NCBI GenBank assembly: GCA_016206785.1
Contig: JACQQV010000008.1
Span: 4,402-68,401, forward strand
DNA: 64,000 nt
Reading direction: 5' to 3'
From: Candidatus Omnitrophota bacterium
GTDB taxonomy: Bacteria > Omnitrophota > Gorgyraeia > JACQQV01
Every line of letters starts with the position of its first letter. Position 1 is the stretch's first letter. A program made the position numbers and the translations under genes. The notes beneath the pieces were generated by a model. That model worked only from the letters and a program-made list of their open reading frames with translations, did not search any database and had not been told where the DNA came from. Shown here one piece after another: positions 36,183 to 49,938 of the stretch.

Positions 36183-37868
36183 ATGGGGGTGAAACCGACA
36201 AAAAAAAGGGTAGGACGGAAGACTGAACTTTTTTGGCTCAATACCCTCTATGAAATCGTTCGAGATGTCAATTCAACCTTAGGCCTCAAAAGCACCTTAA
36301 AGACGATTGTTGAAAAGGCAAAGACACTCCTTAAAGTCGAACGGGCTTCTCTCATGCTTCTCGATAAGAAAGGGAAGACGCTCACCATCCATTTTGCGGA
36401 GGGCCTCTCCCCCTTGATTCTCCGCAATACGCGCATCAGGATCGGCGAAGGCGTTTCCGGATGGGTGGCTCAAAAGGGGAAGCCGCTTCTCATCCAAGAC
36501 ATTAGCAAAGACCGGCGCTTCAAGAAAAAAGAAGGGGCCCGCTACTCCACCGATTCCCTCCTTTCGGTTCCCCTCAAGGTCAAAGGAAAAACAATCGGCG
36601 TTTTAAATGTCAACAATAAAAGAGGAAGGAAGATTTTTACCCACGACGACCTGGAACTTTTAACCGCCCTTGCCGATGAAGCGGCGATCGCCATCCACAA
36701 TGCAACGCTTTATGATGAACTGGTCCAGGTGAATGAGCGTCTCAAGGAACTCGATAAACTGAAATCCGATTTTGTGGCGAAGGTCTCCCATGAACTTCGA
36801 ACCCCTCTTGCCACAACCCGTTACTTTATTACCGCGGTGCGGGGGGAGACCCAGAACACAGGCGCAACCCGCCAGAAAGAATACCTGGGCCTCATCGAAG
36901 ACAACCTTGACCGACTCACGCGGCTCATTGATAATCTCCTCGATTTTTCCAAGATGGAGGTGGGACGGTTTGAACTGAAGAAGGAGCGCGTCGATCTTTT
37001 ATCGATTGCGCGGTCGGCGATCGAAACCCTCCGAAGAAAAGGAGAGGAAAAGGAGATCGCCTTGGTGCTCTTAAGTCCAGGAAAAGTTCCTCCCACCTAT
37101 TTGGATCAGGACCGGATGACCCAAGTAGTCACGAATCTCGTCGACAATGCGATCAAGTATACCCCTTCAAAGGGGTCTGTTTCGGTTGAGATCAAAAGGG
37201 GGAACGGGAATATTCTCCTCACTGTTCGAGATACCGGGGTCGGGATCCGTTCGTCCGATCAGGAAAGGCTTTTCGAAAAGTTCCGGCAGCTCGGACCGAG
37301 CATCCCCCACGAAAAAGGGGTAGGGTTGGGGCTCGCCATTGTGAAAGAGATTGTAATACTTCACAAAGGAAAGATCTGGGTAAAATCGCAGGAAGGGAAG
37401 GGGAGCACATTCACCATCTCCCTTCCGGTTTTAAGCGACGAAGAATTTTTTATGGAGAGGTTGTCGCAGGAAATTCAGAAGGCGCGTGAAAACGGGGATT
37501 TCCTCTCCCTCGTGATTTTAGGAATTGCAAATTTCGAGCATCTTAAAGAAAATATCGGAGAAGAAGGGATGGAATCCCTTTTGGATGAGATCGCCCGCCT
37601 GGTGAAGGAAACGGTCCGCCGACCGAGCGACATCGTCGCCAGTTACAAGCAGGGGAAGGTGATCGCCATTTTAGCGGGTGCCGATAAGGCGGGGGCACTC
37701 GCGCTTGCAGAACGTGTGAAAAAGACGATCCTTTCTCAGCCTTTTCCGATCAAGGGTTCCCCGGTTTCACCGGAACTTCAGTTCGGGATCGGGACCTTTC
37801 CGGAGGATGGAGGAAGCCAAGAAGAATTGGTGAAGCAGGCAGAAAAAAGTTTATACGGTCATTCCTAA
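36183..37868 (+). CDS. GAF-sensor histidine kinase with a C-terminal degenerate GGDEF domain (RxxD I-site retained).
   Basis: GAF (LLKVERASLMLLD...GEGVSGWV). HisKA H-box (SHELRTPL). HATPase_c (NLVDNAIKYT...GVGLGL). C-terminal GGDEF fold with A-site SYKQGK in place of GG(D/E)EF, preceded by RPSD (RxxD). Confidence 0.7.
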   Translation: MGVKPTKKRVGRKTELFWLNTLYEIVRDVNSTLGLKSTLKTIVEKAKTLLKVERASLMLLDKKGKTLTIHFAEGLSPLILRNTRIRIGEGVSGWVAQKGKPLLIQDISKDRRFKKKEGARYSTDSLLSVPLKVKGKTIGVLNVNNKRGRKIFTHDDLELLTALADEAAIAIHNATLYDELVQVNERLKELDKLKSDFVAKVSHELRTPLATTRYFITAVRGETQNTGATRQKEYLGLIEDNLDRLTRLIDNLLDFSKMEVGRFELKKERVDLLSIARSAIETLRRKGEEKEIALVLLSPGKVPPTYLDQDRMTQVVTNLVDNAIKYTPSKGSVSVEIKRGNGNILLTVRDTGVGIRSSDQERLFEKFRQLGPSIPHEKGVGLGLAIVKEIVILHKGKIWVKSQEGKGSTFTISLPVLSDEEFFMERLSQEIQKARENGDFLSLVILGIANFEHLKENIGEEGMESLLDEIARLVKETVRRPSDIVASYKQGKVIAILAGADKAGALALAERVKKTILSQPFPIKGSPVSPELQFGIGTFPEDGGSQEELVKQAEKSLYGHS

Positions 37869-38261
37869 ATGGGACAGAAAAGAATCCTTGTCGTCGAAGA
37901 TGAAGCAGATTTTTCAAAAGCCCTGAGGGCAGTGCTTGAGGGCCAGGGTTTCGAGGTCCATACAGCCGCCACAGGCAAGGAAGGGCTTTTCCTTGCCAAA
38001 AGCATTACGCCAGACCTCATCATTCTCGATGTGATGCTTCCTGAAATTGACGGCTACAAGGTCTGCCGTCTCCTTAAGTTCGACGAACGCTACAACAAAA
38101 TTCCGATCATCATGCTGACCGCCCGTGCCCAAGAGGAAGACAAGAACCTGGGGCAACAAACCGGTGCAGATGCCTACCTGGTCAAAGGTCAAAAGCCTGA
38201 AGTGCTGATCGAGCAGATCAAAGCGATTCTTGCAAAAGGTCCTTCTCTCCCGCCCGCTTAA
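37869..38261 (+). CDS. Stand-alone response-regulator receiver (CheY-like).
   Basis: ILVVEDEADF...ILDVMLPEIDG...IIMLTA...DAYLVK receiver motifs. 130 aa. No output domain. Confidence 0.8.
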   Translation: MGQKRILVVEDEADFSKALRAVLEGQGFEVHTAATGKEGLFLAKSITPDLIILDVMLPEIDGYKVCRLLKFDERYNKIPIIMLTARAQEEDKNLGQQTGADAYLVKGQKPEVLIEQIKAILAKGPSLPPA

Positions 38262-38287
38262 TCTTCTTAAATCTTTTTATCACCTAT

Positions 38288-38315
38288 TGACTTTTTAAAA
38301 CTCTCATGATATACT
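38288..38315 (+). promoter_or_regulatory. Sigma70 promoter. TTGACT-N16-TGaTATACT.
   Basis: TTGACT at 38288-38293, TATACT at 38310-38315. Confidence 0.6.
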
Positions 38316-38338
38316 TTTAACAGATATTTAGAAAGTTC

Positions 38339-38373
38339 ACCCCGTTAGAAAGGGTGTAACTTTCTAACGGGGT
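38339..38373. repeat. 14-bp perfect inverted repeat ACCCCGTTAGAAAG-N7-CTTTCTAACGGGGT (copy 1 of 3).
   Basis: Arms at 38339-38352 and 38360-38373. Lies in the 5' UTR immediately before the AAAGGAG RBS of the HTH gene. Confidence 0.85.
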
Positions 38374-38384
38374 AAAGGAGCCGG

Positions 38385-38609
38385 ATGAAACAGGTCGCTT
38401 TTGCAAGGTCGAATTCCCAACTCATGACGGTCGAGGAGGTTGCCCGTTATCTTGGAATTCATGCCATCACCGTTTATCGGATGCTCAAGAAAACAGACAT
38501 CCCTGCCACCAAACTGTTAGGGAAGTGGCGTTTTAAGAAGGATGTCCTGGACCGCTGGCTCGAATCCCGGATGGAGGAAAGATCTCTTCCCCTCAAACGG
38601 AGAAGGTGA
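38385..38609 (+). CDS. Excisionase-family helix-turn-helix DNA-binding protein (HTH_17-like).
   Basis: MTVEEVARYLGIHAITVYRMLKKTDIPATKLLGKWRFKKDVLDRWLE matches the excisionase-family HTH domain. 74 aa. The stop is 4 nt before the pilB2 start. Confidence 0.65.
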   Translation: MKQVAFARSNSQLMTVEEVARYLGIHAITVYRMLKKTDIPATKLLGKWRFKKDVLDRWLESRMEERSLPLKRRR

Positions 38610-38613
38610 AGCG

Positions 38614-40287
38614 ATGCCGAGGCAGAAGAATCTATCTTTAGAAGAGGTGATCCTGGCCAAGGGACTGTTGGATCCTGAACGGCTGGAAAGGGCCAAAAAA
38701 GAATCAGAAAACTCGAAGGAATCTCTTCAGAAAACTTTGATCCGGCTGGGATATCTTACAGAAGAATTACTCATTCCTCTTTTGGAGGAACGGTCCGGCC
38801 TTCCCTACGTGGATCTCGATACCTACACGATGGACCCCGAACTCATTAAGCTCATTCCGGAGGCGGTTGCGCGCCGGTATCAACTGATCCCTCTTTTTAA
38901 GATCGGAAAGATCCTCACGGTGGCGATGGCAGATCCCTCCAACTATTTTGCCCTCGATGAAATACGCCTTAAGGCCCATTGCGATGTGGAGGCGGTCGTG
39001 AGTACCGAAGAGAAGATCCGACAGGCGATCGACCAACACTATGGTACTGGTGGTTCCATGGAAGCATTGGTGAAGTCGATTACCCAGCGGACGATGGATC
39101 TGGGGGATGAAAAATTGGTAGAAGAAGCCCCCATTATCCAACTCGTCAACCTCCTCATTTCCCAAGCGGTCCGGGAAAGGGCGAGCGATATCCATATTGA
39201 GCCGGAGACAGACACATTGCGCATCCGCCTTCGGATTGATGGCGTTCTTCATGAAATTCCTGCTCCCCCGAAGGAATTGGAACGGGCGGTGATCTCCCGG
39301 ATCAAGGTCCTTTCAAAGATGGACATCGCAGAAAGAAGAATTCCTCAGGATGGACGTTTCAGGGTGCAGGTCGATCACAAAGAGATTGATCTGCGCGTTT
39401 CAACGATTCCAAGCCATCATGGAGAGAATGTGGTCATGAGGCTTCTGGATACAGCGACCGTCTTGATCGGCCTCGAGGAACTCGGTCTTCCGCATGATGC
39501 CTTTGAACCCTTTCATCATCTGATCCACCGGCCGCATGGCATCATTCTTGTGACAGGTCCCACAGGAAGCGGGAAGACAACGACACTTTATGCGTGTCTC
39601 AATAAAATCAGCACCCTTGAAAAAAATATCATCACGATTGAAGATCCGATCGAATATGAAATGGAAGTCATCCGCCAAATGCAGGTCAATCCCAAGATCG
39701 GCGTTACCTTTGCAAACGGCCTCCGCTCCATCTTAAGGCAAGACCCAGACATCATCATGGTCGGCGAGATCCGTGATGTAGAGACTGCAGAGATGGCGAT
39801 TCACGCGGCCCTCACAGGACATCTTGTTTTCTCAACCCTTCATACCAACGATGCCCCGGGGGCGCTTACCCGTCTTATGGACATGGGTGTTGAGCCATTC
39901 CTTATCGCCTCTTCTGTGATCGGGATCGTGGCCCAGCGGCTCGTCCGACTCATCTGCCCGCAATGCAAAAAATCGTATGTCCCTTCCCAAGAACTTTTGA
40001 AGACATTAAGGCTTCCTCTCGGGAAGGGCCCCATTCCCCCTCTGTATCGGGGAGAAGGATGCCGTTTCTGCAAGGAGACAGGATACAAAGGAAGGACCGC
40101 GATTTTTGAACTGATGGTCATGGAGGAGGAAATCCGGGAACTGGTGATTCAGAGAGCCTCTTCGCCAAAAATGAAGGATGCGGCCTGTCGGAAGGGCATG
40201 CAGGTTTTGAGGGAGGATGGCCTGGCCAAGGCGATGGCAGGAATTACTTCGATTGAAGAAGTGCTTCGTGTGACGCAGGACGAGTAA
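38614..40287 (+). CDS. gspE: Second PilB/GspE-family secretion ATPase.
   Basis: Walker A GPTGSGKTTT. Asp and His boxes. CPQC...CRFC Zn motif. N-terminal GSPII_E_N-like domain. The track start at 38542 overlaps the HTH gene, so the start is ATG 38614. Confidence 0.9.
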   Translation: MPRQKNLSLEEVILAKGLLDPERLERAKKESENSKESLQKTLIRLGYLTEELLIPLLEERSGLPYVDLDTYTMDPELIKLIPEAVARRYQLIPLFKIGKILTVAMADPSNYFALDEIRLKAHCDVEAVVSTEEKIRQAIDQHYGTGGSMEALVKSITQRTMDLGDEKLVEEAPIIQLVNLLISQAVRERASDIHIEPETDTLRIRLRIDGVLHEIPAPPKELERAVISRIKVLSKMDIAERRIPQDGRFRVQVDHKEIDLRVSTIPSHHGENVVMRLLDTATVLIGLEELGLPHDAFEPFHHLIHRPHGIILVTGPTGSGKTTTLYACLNKISTLEKNIITIEDPIEYEMEVIRQMQVNPKIGVTFANGLRSILRQDPDIIMVGEIRDVETAEMAIHAALTGHLVFSTLHTNDAPGALTRLMDMGVEPFLIASSVIGIVAQRLVRLICPQCKKSYVPSQELLKTLRLPLGKGPIPPLYRGEGCRFCKETGYKGRTAIFELMVMEEEIRELVIQRASSPKMKDAACRKGMQVLREDGLAKAMAGITSIEEVLRVTQDE

Positions 40288-40288
40288 G

Positions 40289-41500
40289 ATGCCGGTCTAT
40301 ACCTACAAAGCGCGTGATGCATTCGGTCATGTGATTCATGGAAGGATGGAAGCGAAGGACGAGGAGACTCTTGCCACCCGGCTTAAAAAGCTCGGGTTTC
40401 TGGCTACCGCCCTTCGGGAGAAGACCGAGACCTTCGCGATCGAAGACCTCCTCGAGACATTCCGGCGGGTGAAGGAAGATCACCTTGTCATGACGACATT
40501 ACAACTCTCCAAGATGGTCCGTGCAGGGATCCCTCTTCTGGATACCTTAAAAACGCTCACCGATCAGACAGAAGACCGTTATTTTCGGGCAGTCCTCGCC
40601 GACGTGTCGAGGAACGTGGAAGGGGGGAGCGCTCTTTCTGAAGCACTTTCTCAATATCCCCGCATCTTTGATGCAGGGTATGTGAGTATTGTGAAGGCGG
40701 GTGAGACGAGCGGAAAACTTCCGGATGTTCTCGAAAGAATCGCGCAGCTTTTAGAGGATCGTCTGGAGCTCAAGCAAAAAATTAAAACAGCGCTCATGTA
40801 TCCCTGTGTTTTGCTTGTCTTCGGGGTTTGTCTCTCCGGTTTTATGGTGGTTTATCTTTTGCCCTCATTTATGGATATTTTTCAGAAGGCGAAAGTTCCC
40901 CTTCCCAGCCCGACGCAATTCCTCTACGACGTAAGCCAATTCCTCCGTCACTGTTGGGGGCTGATCCTCTTTGTCGTTCTTTCTCTCCCGTTTATCTGGC
41001 AGTCTCTCCTTCATTGGAAAAAGAGCCACATTCTCATCGACCGGTTCTTTTTGGAGTTCCCGCTTTTCGGGCCGCTCGTCCGTCAGGTCACGGTCACCCG
41101 ATTCGCCCAGAATCTTGAAACACTCCTTTCAAGCGGCGTACCGATCTTAGAGGCGTTGGATGTGGCGAAAAAGACCTCAGGGAATCTTGTCATGATGGAG
41201 GTTCTGGAGAAGGCGCAGGCGCGGGTCTCTCAAGGAGAATCTTTGGCGAAACCGCTCAAGGAGAGCAAGGAGTTTCCCCTCATGCCGGTTCATATGATTG
41301 CGGTGGGAGAGGAGTCTGGGACGCTCGATGAGATGCTCGGCCATATCGCCAGTTTCTACCAAAAGACGGTGGATCATGCCATTAAACAGCTCACTGCGCT
41401 GGTAGAGCCCCTCTTTCTCATTCTCATGGGAGGGATGGTCGGTTTTATCATGGCCTCCCTTCTTCTTCCGATCTTTAGGATGGTTAAACTCATTCAATAA
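40289..41500 (+). CDS. gspF: Second PilC/GspF-family platform protein.
   Basis: Two GspF repeats, 3 TM, ~400 aa. Confidence 0.9.
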   Translation: MPVYTYKARDAFGHVIHGRMEAKDEETLATRLKKLGFLATALREKTETFAIEDLLETFRRVKEDHLVMTTLQLSKMVRAGIPLLDTLKTLTDQTEDRYFRAVLADVSRNVEGGSALSEALSQYPRIFDAGYVSIVKAGETSGKLPDVLERIAQLLEDRLELKQKIKTALMYPCVLLVFGVCLSGFMVVYLLPSFMDIFQKAKVPLPSPTQFLYDVSQFLRHCWGLILFVVLSLPFIWQSLLHWKKSHILIDRFFLEFPLFGPLVRQVTVTRFAQNLETLLSSGVPILEALDVAKKTSGNLVMMEVLEKAQARVSQGESLAKPLKESKEFPLMPVHMIAVGEESGTLDEMLGHIASFYQKTVDHAIKQLTALVEPLFLILMGGMVGFIMASLLLPIFRMVKLIQ

Positions 41501-41503
41501 AGG

Positions 41504-41532
41504 TTGACAAAAAAGGAAAATTGTGGTATTCT
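41504..41532 (+). promoter_or_regulatory. Sigma70 promoter. TTGACA-N17-TGgTATTCT.
   Basis: TTGACA at 41504-41509, 17-nt spacer, TATTCT at 41527-41532. AAGGGGGAG RBS follows, before ATG 41606. Confidence 0.6.
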
Positions 41533-41605
41533 ATAAAGTTGGTATTTCATAGTCTCACAATGAGATAGGTGAATTTTCCATAGGCGAAAAAAGGGGGAGT
41601 GACAA

Positions 41606-42103
41606 ATGACCAAAAAAAGTGCTTTTACCCCGTTAAAGATGAAATCTTTAACGGGGTTTACCCTTATTGAACTGATGATCGTCATGGCGGTGATTGCGAT
41701 CTTAATCGGTATCATCCTCCCGATGGTTGGGGGGTTTCGAGAAGAGGCGAACATCAACCGGGCGAGGGGAGATTTGTCCACGTTACGAACCGCGATGGAG
41801 TCTTATTATATTCACCACAGTAACGCCTATCCGCCAGCGCTTACCGGACTCACCGACACGACGACAAATCCGAAGATTGTCACAAGAATTCCGGATGATC
41901 CTTTTTTGCCGGGAACGACCTATCAGGTTCTTTACAGTACCAATAACCAGTTCTACGCGCTCTGGTCGGTTGGACCGGGGGGAACAGCTTCTGTCACAGC
42001 AGTAGCAAACACAGGGGGTGTGACCCAAGCCCAAGGAGCGGGGGCTCGGAACCCGATCTGGGTTGCCAATGGGGATGAACAGACTCCTGCCGAATCCCCT
42101 TAA
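41606..42103 (+). CDS. gspG: GspG-like major pseudopilin (prepilin-type N-terminal cleavage/methylation domain).
   Basis: G|FTLIELMIVMAVIAILIGIILP with E+5. RARGDLSTLRTAMESYY resembles the GspG helix. Two candidate starts, ATG 41606 (strong RBS) or ATG 41639. Confidence 0.8.
   Translation: MTKKSAFTPLKMKSLTGFTLIELMIVMAVIAILIGIILPMVGGFREEANINRARGDLSTLRTAMESYYIHHSNAYPPALTGLTDTTTNPKIVTRIPDDPFLPGTTYQVLYSTNNQFYALWSVGPGGTASVTAVANTGGVTQAQGAGARNPIWVANGDEQTPAESP
41627..41657. repeat. 14-bp perfect inverted repeat ACCCCGTTAAAGAT-gaa-ATCTTTAACGGGGT (copy 2) enclosing ATG 41639.
   Basis: Arms at 41627-41640 and 41644-41657. The second arm encodes KSLTG of the prepilin leader. Confidence 0.85.
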
Positions 42104-42150
42104 CCTCTGAGGAGCCCGTTCATTTTAACGGTTGGAAACAAGAAAACTTC

Positions 42151-42179
42151 AGGCCCCTTTCTGCAAGAAGGGGCTTTTT
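42151..42179 (+). terminator. Intrinsic terminator between the gspG-like and gspI-like genes.
   Basis: GCCCCUU-UCUGCAAGA-AGGGGC hairpin followed by UUUUUUG. Confidence 0.7.
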
Positions 42180-42201
42180 TGTTTGAGGTCTTATTTTCAA
42201 G

Positions 42202-42630
42202 ATGACCCAAAAAGGATTTACCCCGTTAGAGATGAAATCTCTAACGGGGTTTACCCTGATTGAACTGATCCTTGCTATTATTCTTTTTGCAGGGGCGACG
42301 GTCCCTCTCCTCCTCGCTCTCAATCAGGGGCTTTTTGCCACCACCTATTCGGAACATCGTCAGATCGCCGTAGGTCTCGCCCTCAATGAACTGGAGGATG
42401 TGGAACGGGATGCGGGACAAAATTGCGGTCGGTGGGATCGGGTGAGGAACGCCGCCAAGGCCCCCATTGCGGATTTTCCGACATTCCAAAGGCAAATTGT
42501 TGTTTCGAATCCTCCCGGTACGGATACGAATTTAAAAGAGGTGCGCGTCATCGTCTATTGGACGGATCAGGTAGAAAATTCAGCAACGCTTGTCACTTAT
42601 TTTGTGAACAATCCGAACGGTTGCCCATGA
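42202..42630 (+). CDS. gspI: GspI/PilV-like minor pseudopilin.
   Basis: G|FTLIELILAIILFAGA with E+5. ~140 aa. Candidate starts ATG 42202 (no RBS) or ATG 42232 (inside the hairpin). Confidence 0.7.
   Translation: MTQKGFTPLEMKSLTGFTLIELILAIILFAGATVPLLLALNQGLFATTYSEHRQIAVGLALNELEDVERDAGQNCGRWDRVRNAAKAPIADFPTFQRQIVVSNPPGTDTNLKEVRVIVYWTDQVENSATLVTYFVNNPNGCP
42220..42250. repeat. 14-bp perfect inverted repeat ACCCCGTTAGAGAT-gaa-ATCTCTAACGGGGT (copy 3) enclosing ATG 42232.
   Basis: Arms at 42220-42233 and 42237-42250. It differs from copy 2 by a compensated A/G plus T/C pair. Confidence 0.85.
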
Positions 42631-49257: not shown

Positions 49258-49938
49258 TTGGGAATCAGGGAAAAGATTTTATCCATTCGAGAAAGGATTG
49301 AGCGCTCCAAACGGAATGCCCCGGAGTTAAACACCCCTGTTCTTTTGGTGGGGGTTACAAAGGGGGTCGGACTTGAGAGACTTCGAGAGGCGATTCAAGG
49401 AGGACTCGGTGATCTGGGAGAGAATCGCGTTTTAGAAGCGCAAGGAAAAATCTCCCACGTACAGGAGGGTGTTCAGTGGCACATGGTGGGACACCTCCAA
49501 AGAAATAAGGTGAGAGATGCGATACAACTTTTCCATCTTATCCACTCGGTCGATTCTCTTCGCTTGGCCCAAGCGATTGAGAAAGAGGCCTCTCTCGTTG
49601 GAAAAGAAGTTCCGGTCCTCCTCCAGGTAAACCTTCAGGGGAAAACCGCTCCGTTTGGCGCTTCTGTGGACTCCGCGGCATTTCTTGTGAAAGAAATTTC
49701 TTCATTGAAACATCTGAAACTCTCGGGACTCATGACGATCGCCCCCCTCACGGAAGATCCAGAAAAGACGCGTCCTTATTTTAGACGCCTCTGGGAATTG
49801 AAGAAAGCGCTTGAGAGAGAAAACCCTTCGCTGGCATTGCGGTACCTTTCGATGGGAATGAGTCAAGATTTTGAGGTCGCCATCGAAGAAGGGGCAAATG
49901 TGGTGAGGATTGGAAGGGCTATTTTTGGTACAGGGTAA
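49258..49938 (+). CDS. yggS: PLP homeostasis protein YggS/YlmE family.
   Basis: LLVGVTKGV...HMVGHLQRNKV...RIGRAIFG alanine-racemase-N fold. Confidence 0.8.
   Translation: MGIREKILSIRERIERSKRNAPELNTPVLLVGVTKGVGLERLREAIQGGLGDLGENRVLEAQGKISHVQEGVQWHMVGHLQRNKVRDAIQLFHLIHSVDSLRLAQAIEKEASLVGKEVPVLLQVNLQGKTAPFGASVDSAAFLVKEISSLKHLKLSGLMTIAPLTEDPEKTRPYFRRLWELKKALERENPSLALRYLSMGMSQDFEVAIEEGANVVRIGRAIFGTG

Follow-up and report, generated by a model that had tools for sequence, protein, structure and literature searches.

Hairpin palindromes at an Omnitrophota secretion-pilus locus: probable solo copies of a cross-phylum, insertion-polymorphic repeat tied to a small GIY-YIG nuclease

We analyzed three hairpin-forming palindromes at a secretion-pilus locus of a Candidatus Omnitrophota bacterium, in a stretch of 64,000 nucleotides (contig JACQQV010000008.1 of assembly GCA_016206785.1, positions 4,402 to 68,401; hereafter the window). 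The gene order at window positions 36183-41500, also observed in the related loci L121 and L122-L124, comprises a GAF-histidine kinase-GGDEF hybrid, a single-domain response regulator, an HTH_17 gene, a GspE/PilB-type ATPase, GspF/PilC and pilins, and it was constant in these relatives whether or not the hairpins were present. This constancy of gene order suggests that the cyclic di-GMP/two-component module and the small helix-turn-helix (HTH) protein are its real regulators. The HTH_17 gene (38385-38609, forward strand) encodes a 74-aa, excisionase-family HTH protein (Pfam PF12728, E = 8e-17) and is preceded by a sigma-70-like promoter (38287-38315, forward strand; TTGACT-17-TATACT, with TG). 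Two prepilin genes lie downstream on the same strand: prepilin 1 (41606-42103, 165 aa), with N_methyl and T2SSG domains in Pfam, is served by a promoter at 41504-41532 and a terminator at 42151-42176, and prepilin 2 (42202-42630, 142 aa) carries an N_methyl domain.

A search of the window with the exact pattern ACCCCGTTA-N(10-25)-TAACGGGGT returned three matches, at 38339-38373, 41627-41657, and 42220-42250, all within 3.9 kb. No further exact ACCCCGTTA half-site was found in the 64 kb beyond these copies, and none of 100 dinucleotide-preserving shuffles contained any match, in agreement with the original prediction that a chance origin was very unlikely. Each copy forms a perfect 14-bp stem, with loops of 7, 3, and 3 nt for copies 1, 2, and 3, respectively. 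As had been claimed, the inner five stem positions differ among the copies and every change is compensated on the opposite arm (GAAAG/CTTTC, AAGAT/ATCTT, and GAGAT/ATCTC). The predicted hairpins were very stable, with an RNA stem energy of about -25 kcal/mol and single-stranded DNA (ssDNA) hairpin energies ranging from -14.4 to -15.2 kcal/mol (z = -6.4 to -8). Comparison with other copies, described below, placed the conserved core at CCCCGTTA…TAACGGGG, with the outermost A/T pair belonging to a 4-nt flank. Copy 1 (38336-38376, no strand assigned) consists of TTCA, the core CCCCGTTAGAAAG-ggtgtaa-CTTTCTAACGGGG (38340-38372), and TAAA. Copies 2 and 3 (also unstranded) have TTTA on both sides: copy 2 (41624-41660) encloses the core CCCCGTTAAAGAT-gaa-ATCTTTAACGGGG (41628-41656), copy 3 (42217-42253) encloses CCCCGTTAGAGAT-gaa-ATCTCTAACGGGG (42221-42249), and at both the direct repeat TTTA(CCC) stands on either side of the hairpin.

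The copies occupy two kinds of position. Transcription of the HTH gene is expected to start approximately 17 nt ahead of copy 1, whose stem abuts the Shine-Dalgarno (SD) sequence; the copy is an insertion of approximately 38 nt with the promoter on one side and the SD of the HTH_17 gene on the other, so its earlier placement in the 5' untranslated region (UTR) just before the SD was correct. Copies 2 and 3 had been assigned to the pseudopilin genes. Both do lie at pilin genes, but inside the open reading frames (ORFs), in leader codons, and not upstream of them. Copy 2 is an in-frame 33-nt insertion (11 codons, …PLKMKSLTGFT) within the prepilin 1 leader, and copy 3 is an in-frame 33-nt insertion within the prepilin 2 leader; the resulting leader peptides read MTKKSAFTPLKMKSLTG/FTLIEL and MTQKGFTPLEMKSLTG/FTLIEL. 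Their stems begin 22 nt past the start codon, and the two copies lie in the same register, 593 bp apart, bracketing the mature part of pilin 1.

We compared the syntenic loci L121 (which holds the pilin-1 ortholog P0004) and L122-L124 (which hold P0003). Amino acid identity to the window was 91% for GspE, 87% for GspF, and 87% for the histidine kinase in L122, and 81%, 76%, and 68%, respectively, in L121; these three proteins place the window as sister to L122, with L121 as the outgroup. In L122-L124, the HTH gene, the two promoters, and the two pilin genes are all present, but none of the three palindromes is; L121 has no copy at the HTH gene. The original prediction had named orthologous loci without the palindrome as evidence against it, and these loci, whose GspE is 91% identical, are such a case. 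At the HTH 5' UTR, the filled window site reads …TTTAGAAAGT followed by the insert TCACCCC…GGGGTA and then AAGGAGCC…, and the empty sites read …TTTAGAAAGT/AGGAAGCC… in L121 and …TTTAAAAAGT/GAAGGGACC… in L122 and L124. In both L121 and L122, …AAAGT runs directly into the SD region, and the HTH-gene promoter is kept at these hairpin-free sites. The native upstream sequence TTTAGAAAGT, which is present at empty sites too, repeats the inner arm GTTAGAAAG of the element; this repeat may be microhomology at the insertion point, or chance. An alternative pairing between TTAGAAAGTTCACCC and GGGTGTAACTTTCTAA (window 38328-38367) also competes with the copy-1 hairpin.

At the pilin genes, the filled and empty states were equally distinct. 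The pilin-1 site of L122 is empty (AGCGCC-TTTA-CCCTGATTGAA), compared with TTTA/29-nt core/TTTA/CCC… in the window; that of L121 is filled and carries a compensated C-G to T-A pair (ATCCC…GGGAT). The pilin-1 orthologs P0002 (83% identical), P0003 (78%), and P0005 (62%) have the short canonical leader MHKKSA/FTLIEL, and P0004 (68%) shares the 11-codon insert of the window. Because the pilin-1 copy is common to the window and the outgroup L121 and absent from the sister L122, either precise loss or repeated gain must have occurred. At pilin 2, the L122 site is empty (AAAAGT-TTTA-CCCTGATCGAA) and the window site is filled, and L121 contains a tandem pair of copies at that codon, with TTCA…TTCA as flanks. 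The local Phe codon of L121 is TTC, and these flanks thus indicated that the duplicated flank follows the target sequence. Two or three tandem hairpin-derived units were observed in the leaders of P0242 (210 aa) and of L121 (9970-10045), reading MEDRGFTPLDSKHLTG-FTPLDRFIPSDKKPYLTG-FTPLDSKHLTG/FTLIEV, which shows repeated insertion at a regenerated target. The YggS-family gene provided the reciprocal case: L121 has an in-frame copy (GTGAA/CCCCGTTAGAGATAAGATCTCTAACGGGG/TGAA) that adds the 11 residues NPVRDKISNGV (…LLQV-NPVRDKISNGV-NPQ…), and the window ortholog is empty, with its target site at 49621-49635 on the forward strand (…CAG-GTAAAC-CTT…). In total, three clean filled/empty pairs with a TNNA duplication were obtained.

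A fourth copy from the same sample lies in L206 (6142-6171), approximately 4.3 kb past the left edge of the window at a contig end. It reads TTTA/CCCCGTTAGAAAT-gaa-ATTTCTAACG… (translated as …AGFTPLEMKFLT…) and has the same GAA loop. From its sequence, this copy appears to sit at a prepilin-leader position, with the contig breaking off inside the hairpin. It has no in-frame ATG upstream, so translation may begin at the ATG on the stem/loop boundary (MKFLTG/FT…).

The hairpin proved to be dispersed far beyond pilus loci, the other observation that had been named in advance as evidence against the regulatory reading. The complete genome of Candidatus Velamenicoccus archaeovorus (CP019384) carries one copy or more (L015). 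A scan with the exact outer arms, using one genome per species, listed more than 119 loci in Omnitrophota, Nitrospirota, many members of the candidate phyla radiation (CPR, Patescibacteria), Planctomycetota, Desulfobacterota, Elusimicrobia, an Aenigmatarchaeota metagenome-assembled genome (MAG), and others. The family core is CCCCGTTAG…CTAACGGGG in a wider frame of R-T-N-N-A / CCCC…GGGG / T-N-N-A-Y, with a length of 26-35 nt and stems of 13-16 bp, and the inner arm ACCCCGTTAGAnA… is also common to most matches. Perfect stems exceeded the 9 bp fixed by the search pattern in 109 of 122 matches (p ~ 6e-51), and the four-nucleotide flank TNNA was the same on both sides in 52 of the 122 copies, compared with a permutation mean of 12 and a maximum of 23. 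Site-specific duplications included TATG, TGGG, TGAG, TGAT, TCAG, and CAAA. Degenerate copies showed the duplications CAAA, TCAG, TTAG, and TGAA together with the compensated stem variants TCCC/GGGA and CCCTG/CAGGG. The core plus 4 nt was a multiple of three in 10 of 14 copies within long ORFs vs 38 of 108 elsewhere (p = 0.011), which fits real coding insertions of the core with a 4-nt duplication, and in-frame copies were also found inside ORFs such as YggS and hsdS. Pilin-leader copies recur (L019, L107, L121, L206, P0004, P0082, P0242, and P0244); the Phycisphaerae pilin in L019 reads RRGFTPLEIRRCFLTG/FTLIEL, and P0242 contains three tandem units. Across phyla, the pilin share is only approximately 3% of copies. 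A library search with the 40-aa pilin N-terminus, a query too short to yield a frequency, returned two real examples and two unrelated eukaryotic repeat proteins. No Rfam family matched the hairpin, with only sub-threshold chance matches to microRNA hairpin models, and a text search of the literature for the sequence strings returned unrelated primers only.

We used these distributions to address the regulatory role that had been proposed for the palindromes, as operators or RNA targets of the adjacent HTH_17 protein with autoregulation at copy 1 and co-regulation of the pseudopilins at copies 2 and 3. The location of copy 1, which has the HTH gene's promoter on one side and its SD on the other, and the confinement of three copies to 3.9 kb of the pilus locus (P ~ 0.011), are what such a model would predict. 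However, HTH_17 orthologs in L121 and L122-L124 have no hairpin at their own gene, and L122-L124 have none at all; conversely, a phmmer search against the surrounding ORFs found no HTH_17 homolog at the 119 listed loci beyond the source contig. In addition, copies 2 and 3 lie at least 87 nt downstream of the promoter, within coding sequence, and a dimeric operator does not require compensated inner positions. The expected link to pilus genes also disappeared when neighbors were tabulated: the 181 flanking ORFs examined with Pfam encode SecA, MreB, RtcB, tRNA synthetases, ribosomal protein L13, and similar housekeeping products, and no neighbor family was enriched among them. Control by the HTH protein is therefore a very improbable explanation of the palindromes.

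Some seemingly unpaired arms were found to bound longer members of 65-140 nt, with matching 4-nt flanks (TATG, TGGG, TGAG, TTTA, and TGAT, the last with a nested copy). The arms in L028 enclose an 84-aa ORF encoding a stand-alone GIY-YIG nuclease, and a second GIY-YIG gene, in L074, is bracketed by a variant repeat; the two proteins matched PF01541 (E = 1e-16 and 3e-17, respectively) and showed no further domain. We then used these two nuclease proteins, and not the repeat, to search metagenomes and selected 80 loci out of at least 404 relatives. A 13-nt inverted repeat (with no more than two mismatches) bracketed the ORF in 48 of the 80 loci, vs 13 in the reversed control and 6 in the shuffled control (p = 8e-9). 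The 5' arm lies 3-45 nt ahead of the ATG, and there is often overlap between the 3' arm and the final codons (…YLTG*). The layout is usually a half-arm on each side of the gene, sometimes with complete hairpins too. The flanks of these gene-carrying cassettes are mostly TTCA…TAAA or TTTA…TGAA, where TAA or TGA is the stop codon of the nuclease, and the TTCA…TAAA flanks of copy 1 are the commonest pair around them. The arms vary among loci yet remain complementary (ACCCCGTTAGATA, ACCCCGTGAAATA, ACCCTGTTAAATA, ACCCTGTCAAATA, ATCCCGTTAGAGA, ATTGCGTTAGAGA, GCCACGTGAGATA, and others). Among 29 distinct arm pairs, 97% of cells were paired and double changes occurred at 12 of 13 positions, a covariation that 0 of 500 shuffles reached, and slid controls dropped to 30-46% paired; as the pairs were chosen as inverted repeats, the percentage paired is partly built in, but the diversity of pair types is not. 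G·T (G·U) pairs accounted for only 7 of 377 cells. The earlier claim that the covarying arms reflect a constraint on a hairpin or inverted repeat was thus upheld: the palindromes are genuine, and their structure is under constraint.

The nuclease belongs to a large family of more than 3,100 clusters at 90% identity (members of 84-94 aa), whose proteins are 74-93% identical among MAGs of Sungbacteria, Paceibacterota, Parcubacteria, Deltaproteobacteria, and Planctomycetes. Extra hairpin copies were present in 10 of the 80 short, protein-selected loci. Three solo hairpins in L207 share the arms of the cassette and lie no more than 5 kb from it; one of these is within hsdS. On longer contigs, the cassette stands inside operons, in the orders hsdS/GIY/hsdR and AbiEi/GIY/AbiEii. 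These defence operons contain 88-aa GIY-YIG cassettes, next to type I restriction-modification genes in L207-L210 (GIY at 10001-10267 in L207) and within an abortive-infection pair in L211-L214 (GIY at 10001-10267 in L211); a second GIY-YIG gene of L211 has a solo hairpin at its own 3' end (…FTPLEKNSLTG…). Many genes of this nuclease family without bracketing arms (L152, L160, L174, L175, L177, L178, L189, L191, L192, and L197) lie directly upstream of tRNA-like sequences, as judged by eye. NCBIfam and PDB searches did not name the nuclease more specifically than GIY-YIG/UPF0213-like.

Taken together, the copies are insertions relative to orthologous loci, many with a 4-nt target duplication, in unrelated contexts, and their arms are common to a nuclease cassette. 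We therefore consider that the three palindromes are probably solo copies of a cross-phylum, insertion-polymorphic hairpin repeat tied to a small GIY-YIG nuclease, and not a pilus-specific operator. An ordinary miniature inverted-repeat transposable element (MITE) or repetitive extragenic palindrome (REP), moved in trans by a conventional transposase (a DDE enzyme with a 4-bp duplication, or an enzyme of the RAYT/IS200-like Y1 type), would make the GIY-YIG ORF a passenger or an insertion into the loop. Classic MITE traits are present: terminal inverted repeats, duplications of 4 nt, nested copies, and members ranging in size from 65 to 140 nt. GIY-YIG enzymes are not known to act as cut-and-paste transposases. 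Against this, no transposase family recurred among the 181 flanking genes, in which no Y1_Tnp was detected and only two matches were to ISL3, a family that makes 8-bp duplications. No full-length insertion sequence (IS) with hairpin termini and a DDE gene was found among the unpaired arms in approximately 1 Mb of loci, and the sole gene found bracketed by the arms was that of the GIY-YIG protein, at 48 of 80 loci with co-varying arms. The hallmarks of REPs, a GTAG head and an extragenic location, were also lacking. We thus regard mobilization by a conventional transposase as unlikely.

Comparison with described elements sharpened these distinctions. REPs and bacterial interspersed mosaic elements (BIMEs), with their IS200/IS605-like Y1 enzyme RAYT, are short dispersed palindromes that form ssDNA hairpins recognized by a small nuclease whose gene they flank; the flanking tetranucleotides matter, and the enzyme may be domesticated or selfish. 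The hairpins described here differ in having no Y1 transposase and no GTAG head (GTNNA instead) and in lying in frame within ORFs, and unlike the species-specific REPs they are nearly identical in sequence across phyla. MITEs such as Correia elements affect neighboring genes, and they share with the present family terminal inverted repeats, target-site duplication, short non-autonomous copies, and nested or tandem insertions. However, MITEs usually measure 50-500 bp and the hairpins are far smaller, more than half of the copies lack the duplication, and the putative parent encodes a GIY-YIG nuclease and not a DDE transposase. The palindromic elements of Rickettsia insert in frame into protein genes, adding a peptide without destroying the protein (PMC10969869). 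The present family resembles them in the in-frame coding insertion of a palindromic repeat; however, they measure approximately 100-150 bp and are confined to the genus, whereas the core here is 29-35 nt, occurs in many phyla, and has an associated gene. Integron attC sites, CRISPR repeats, DNA-uptake sequences, and Xer/dif sites were set aside as candidates on the grounds of GTT/AAC box order, solitary copies, cross-phylum spread, and lengths.

By architecture and protein type, the closest known relative of the family is the Ssn/SRM system, and we regard the family as a candidate variant of it and not a proven member. Ssn proteins are single-domain GIY-YIG proteins of approximately 94 aa (CDD cd10448) that bind a hairpin repeat (NTS/dRS3 in Neisseria; SRM generally) exclusively in its ssDNA form and cleave a few nucleotides upstream (Chenal et al., Nat Commun 2025; PMC11893778). 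The loop of the substrate is dispensable, and a hairpin split over two strands is still functional; Ssn genes are flanked by 20-50-nt inverted repeats that also occur scattered, in hundreds of copies, nuclease and repeat co-evolve, and Rickettsia is among the SRM-rich genera (PMC11893778). The nuclease described here is likewise a single-domain GIY-YIG protein of approximately 80-100 aa, whose gene is flanked on both sides by hairpin-forming inverted repeats. An Ssn-type homolog of Sinorhizobium meliloti is 36-39% identical to these proteins, with Y6/Y17/E64 collinear with the SsnA catalytic mutants, and it sits among NTS-like hairpins (…TCATCCCTGTG-CTCG-TCACAGGGATC…) whose CCCTGTG/CACAGGG stem recurs among the arms analyzed here. 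In this genome (L205; CP090106.1, 1662201-1667413), three repeat units of approximately 190-230 nt precede the gene and a partial one follows it; every unit has two NTS-like hairpins, and none gave an exact match to the published SRM regular expression.

The two systems also differ in several respects. The consensus is CCCCGTTAG…, the stems are longer (13-16 bp), and the gene usually stands between the halves of one inverted repeat and not between two complete hairpins. Target duplications, filled and empty sites, and frequent in-frame coding insertions were observed here, whereas the authors of the Ssn study called the repeat-gene-repeat arrangement IS-like, reported no duplications, and found only 2% of NTS to be intragenic (PMC11893778). 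The hosts, including Omnitrophota, CPR, Nitrospirota, and Planctomycetota, are outside that study, in which Omnitrophota, CPR, and Nitrospirota are not mentioned (PMC11893778).

These comparisons also bear on a possible function at the RNA level, in which the hairpins would be retained in this lineage to tune the stability of the HTH-gene and pilin mRNAs or the initiation of their translation. The RNA stems are strong (about -25 kcal/mol). At copy 1 the stem abuts the SD, and in the pilins it begins 22 nt past the start codon and has an ATG in frame at its loop. In the window as well as in L121, which is more distant, the pilin-1 copy stays perfectly paired, a compensated pair included. Furthermore, the stem top and loop give ATGAAA in copies 2 and 3 and in L206, from which a canonical short leader MK(S/F)LTG/FT would result. 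Nevertheless, the closest relatives are hairpin-free with intact promoters, SDs, and genes, the element occurs in random intergenic and coding contexts of other phyla, the rarity of G·U pairs points to a constraint at the DNA level, and the Ssn precedent acts on ssDNA and not RNA. We consider an RNA-level role to be rather improbable.

For the probable hairpin repeat tied to a GIY-YIG nuclease, we propose the following mechanism. By analogy with Ssn, the cognate nuclease would bind and cut at the hairpin in ssDNA. Spread and precise loss could be driven by the nuclease acting on the folded ssDNA hairpin, by replication or repair at the hairpin, or by replication slippage between direct repeats of 4-7 nt. 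Copy 1 is inserted between the HTH gene's promoter and its SD; copies 2 and 3 entered the two prepilins at their F(+1)T(+2) codons (TTT ACC C). The 3' arm of the element, CTA-ACG-GGG, encodes L-T-G and, with the duplicated TTTA, rebuilds the G/FTLIEL cleavage site. The leader grows from 5-6 to 16-17 residues, and the -1 residue of pilin 1 changes from Ala to the canonical Gly. Judged from the sequence, the extra 11 residues would leave with the cleaved leader and the mature pilin would be unchanged. The leader/mature junction may be one of the few coding sites where insertion is harmless. Clustering at the pilus locus would then result from permissive sites, and possibly from gene conversion among pilin paralogs, whose N-terminal segments are nearly identical. 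A permissive leader combined with such conversion would explain the pilin bias: pilin leaders contain three of the four copies in the genome piece of the window (L206 included) and three of four in L121. The hairpin repeat is most likely selfish and tolerated in the disposable prepilin leader.

The same bias could instead reflect a benefit to the host. In a system like Neisseria NTS/SsnA, hairpins at the 5' edge of pilin cassettes would mark sites of ssDNA cleavage, and cleavage would limit or steer recombination (for example, in pilus-mediated transformation) or promote exchange or deletion of pilin cassettes between direct repeats of approximately 60 nt (hairpin plus conserved N-terminus). 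The bracketing of mature pilin 1 by copies 2 and 3 in the same register, and the three-in-four share of pilin leaders in both genome pieces, fit this idea. In Neisseria, the Ssn system makes transforming DNA integrate less, and the NTS cluster by surface-protein genes (PMC11893778). However, sister lineages with the same pilus locus lack the hairpins, pilins hold only the small share of copies across phyla given above, the nuclease gene was not seen in the window or the extra 4.3 kb, and a permissive cleaved leader with gene conversion between paralogs is a simpler account of the bias. A host-beneficial system is accordingly quite improbable in our estimation.

Several observations weigh against the selfish, nuclease-tied repeat that we favor. 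On the insertion chemistry, copy 1 is not enclosed by a direct repeat (TTCA…TAAA), and the two flanks agree in only 43% of solo copies. The clustering of the copies in the pilus locus is improbable by chance (P ~ 0.011) and leaves room for a host function. No GIY-YIG gene was found in the 64-kb window or in the extra 4.3 kb on the left. The arm covariation would also arise if a protein recognized both ends as double-stranded terminal repeats. With respect to the Ssn relationship, the published SRM pattern HGTCWYN(0-2)YYVSBRHN(0-5)WNVSBRGN(0-2)RNCYNB was matched by 0 of 133 hairpins and had no match in the window, L121, or L122. The flanks described here are symmetric (R-T-N-N-A, T-N-N-A-Y), whereas NTS are oriented (an upstream GTCAT-type sequence, and C after the palindrome), and the nuclease is about as similar to the UPF0213 structures 1zg2 and 1ywl as to Ssn-type proteins.

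A broader proposal, which we hold only tentatively and with more doubt than conviction, is that the arms and the 84-aa GIY-YIG gene could together make up a new type of autonomous mobile element, with a minimal Ssn-like ssDNA nuclease as its sole enzyme. The solo hairpins of 29-35 nt would be its non-autonomous derivatives, inserting at R-T-N-N-A-Y with a 4-nt duplication, excising precisely, and moving between phyla, and the prepilin junction would be a safe harbour in which the 3' arm (…LTG) regenerates the peptidase site. Filled and empty sites, target duplications, in-frame coding insertions, and the cross-phylum near-identity of both repeat and nuclease are new relative to the Ssn work, and they make the question of whether Ssn-type cassettes are mobile elements directly testable. 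The analysis would extend the Ssn/SRM idea to Omnitrophota, CPR, Nitrospirota, Planctomycetota, and others, through a repeat that the published search pattern missed. If these nucleases are indeed hairpin-specific ssDNases, the co-varying pairs of arm and nuclease would constitute a catalogue of specificities. For the window itself, the repeat is probably a neutral parasite in a permissive site, and a tempting regulatory model for the secretion-pilus locus is removed. In practical terms, such hairpins break assemblies, as in the contig that ends inside one, and they give rise to odd long prepilin leaders and spurious ORFs in MAG annotation.

Two further repeats were observed. Related pilins (P0048, P0053, P0076, P0077, P0086, P0090, P0101, P0104, P0105, P0110, and P0114) have N-terminal extensions before the canonical MKRGFTLIEL, which consist of one to three tandem units of approximately 14 aa, MNCV[SL]LK[EK]QKG[EA]xK; these look like a tandem duplication of the SD and ATG region upstream of the pilin start, and hence a second type of repeat at pilin 5' ends. 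The longest inverted repeat reported for the window is an imperfect inverted/direct repeat cluster at 1868-1950 (…CGTGAAGCGT… / …ACGCTTCACGA…).

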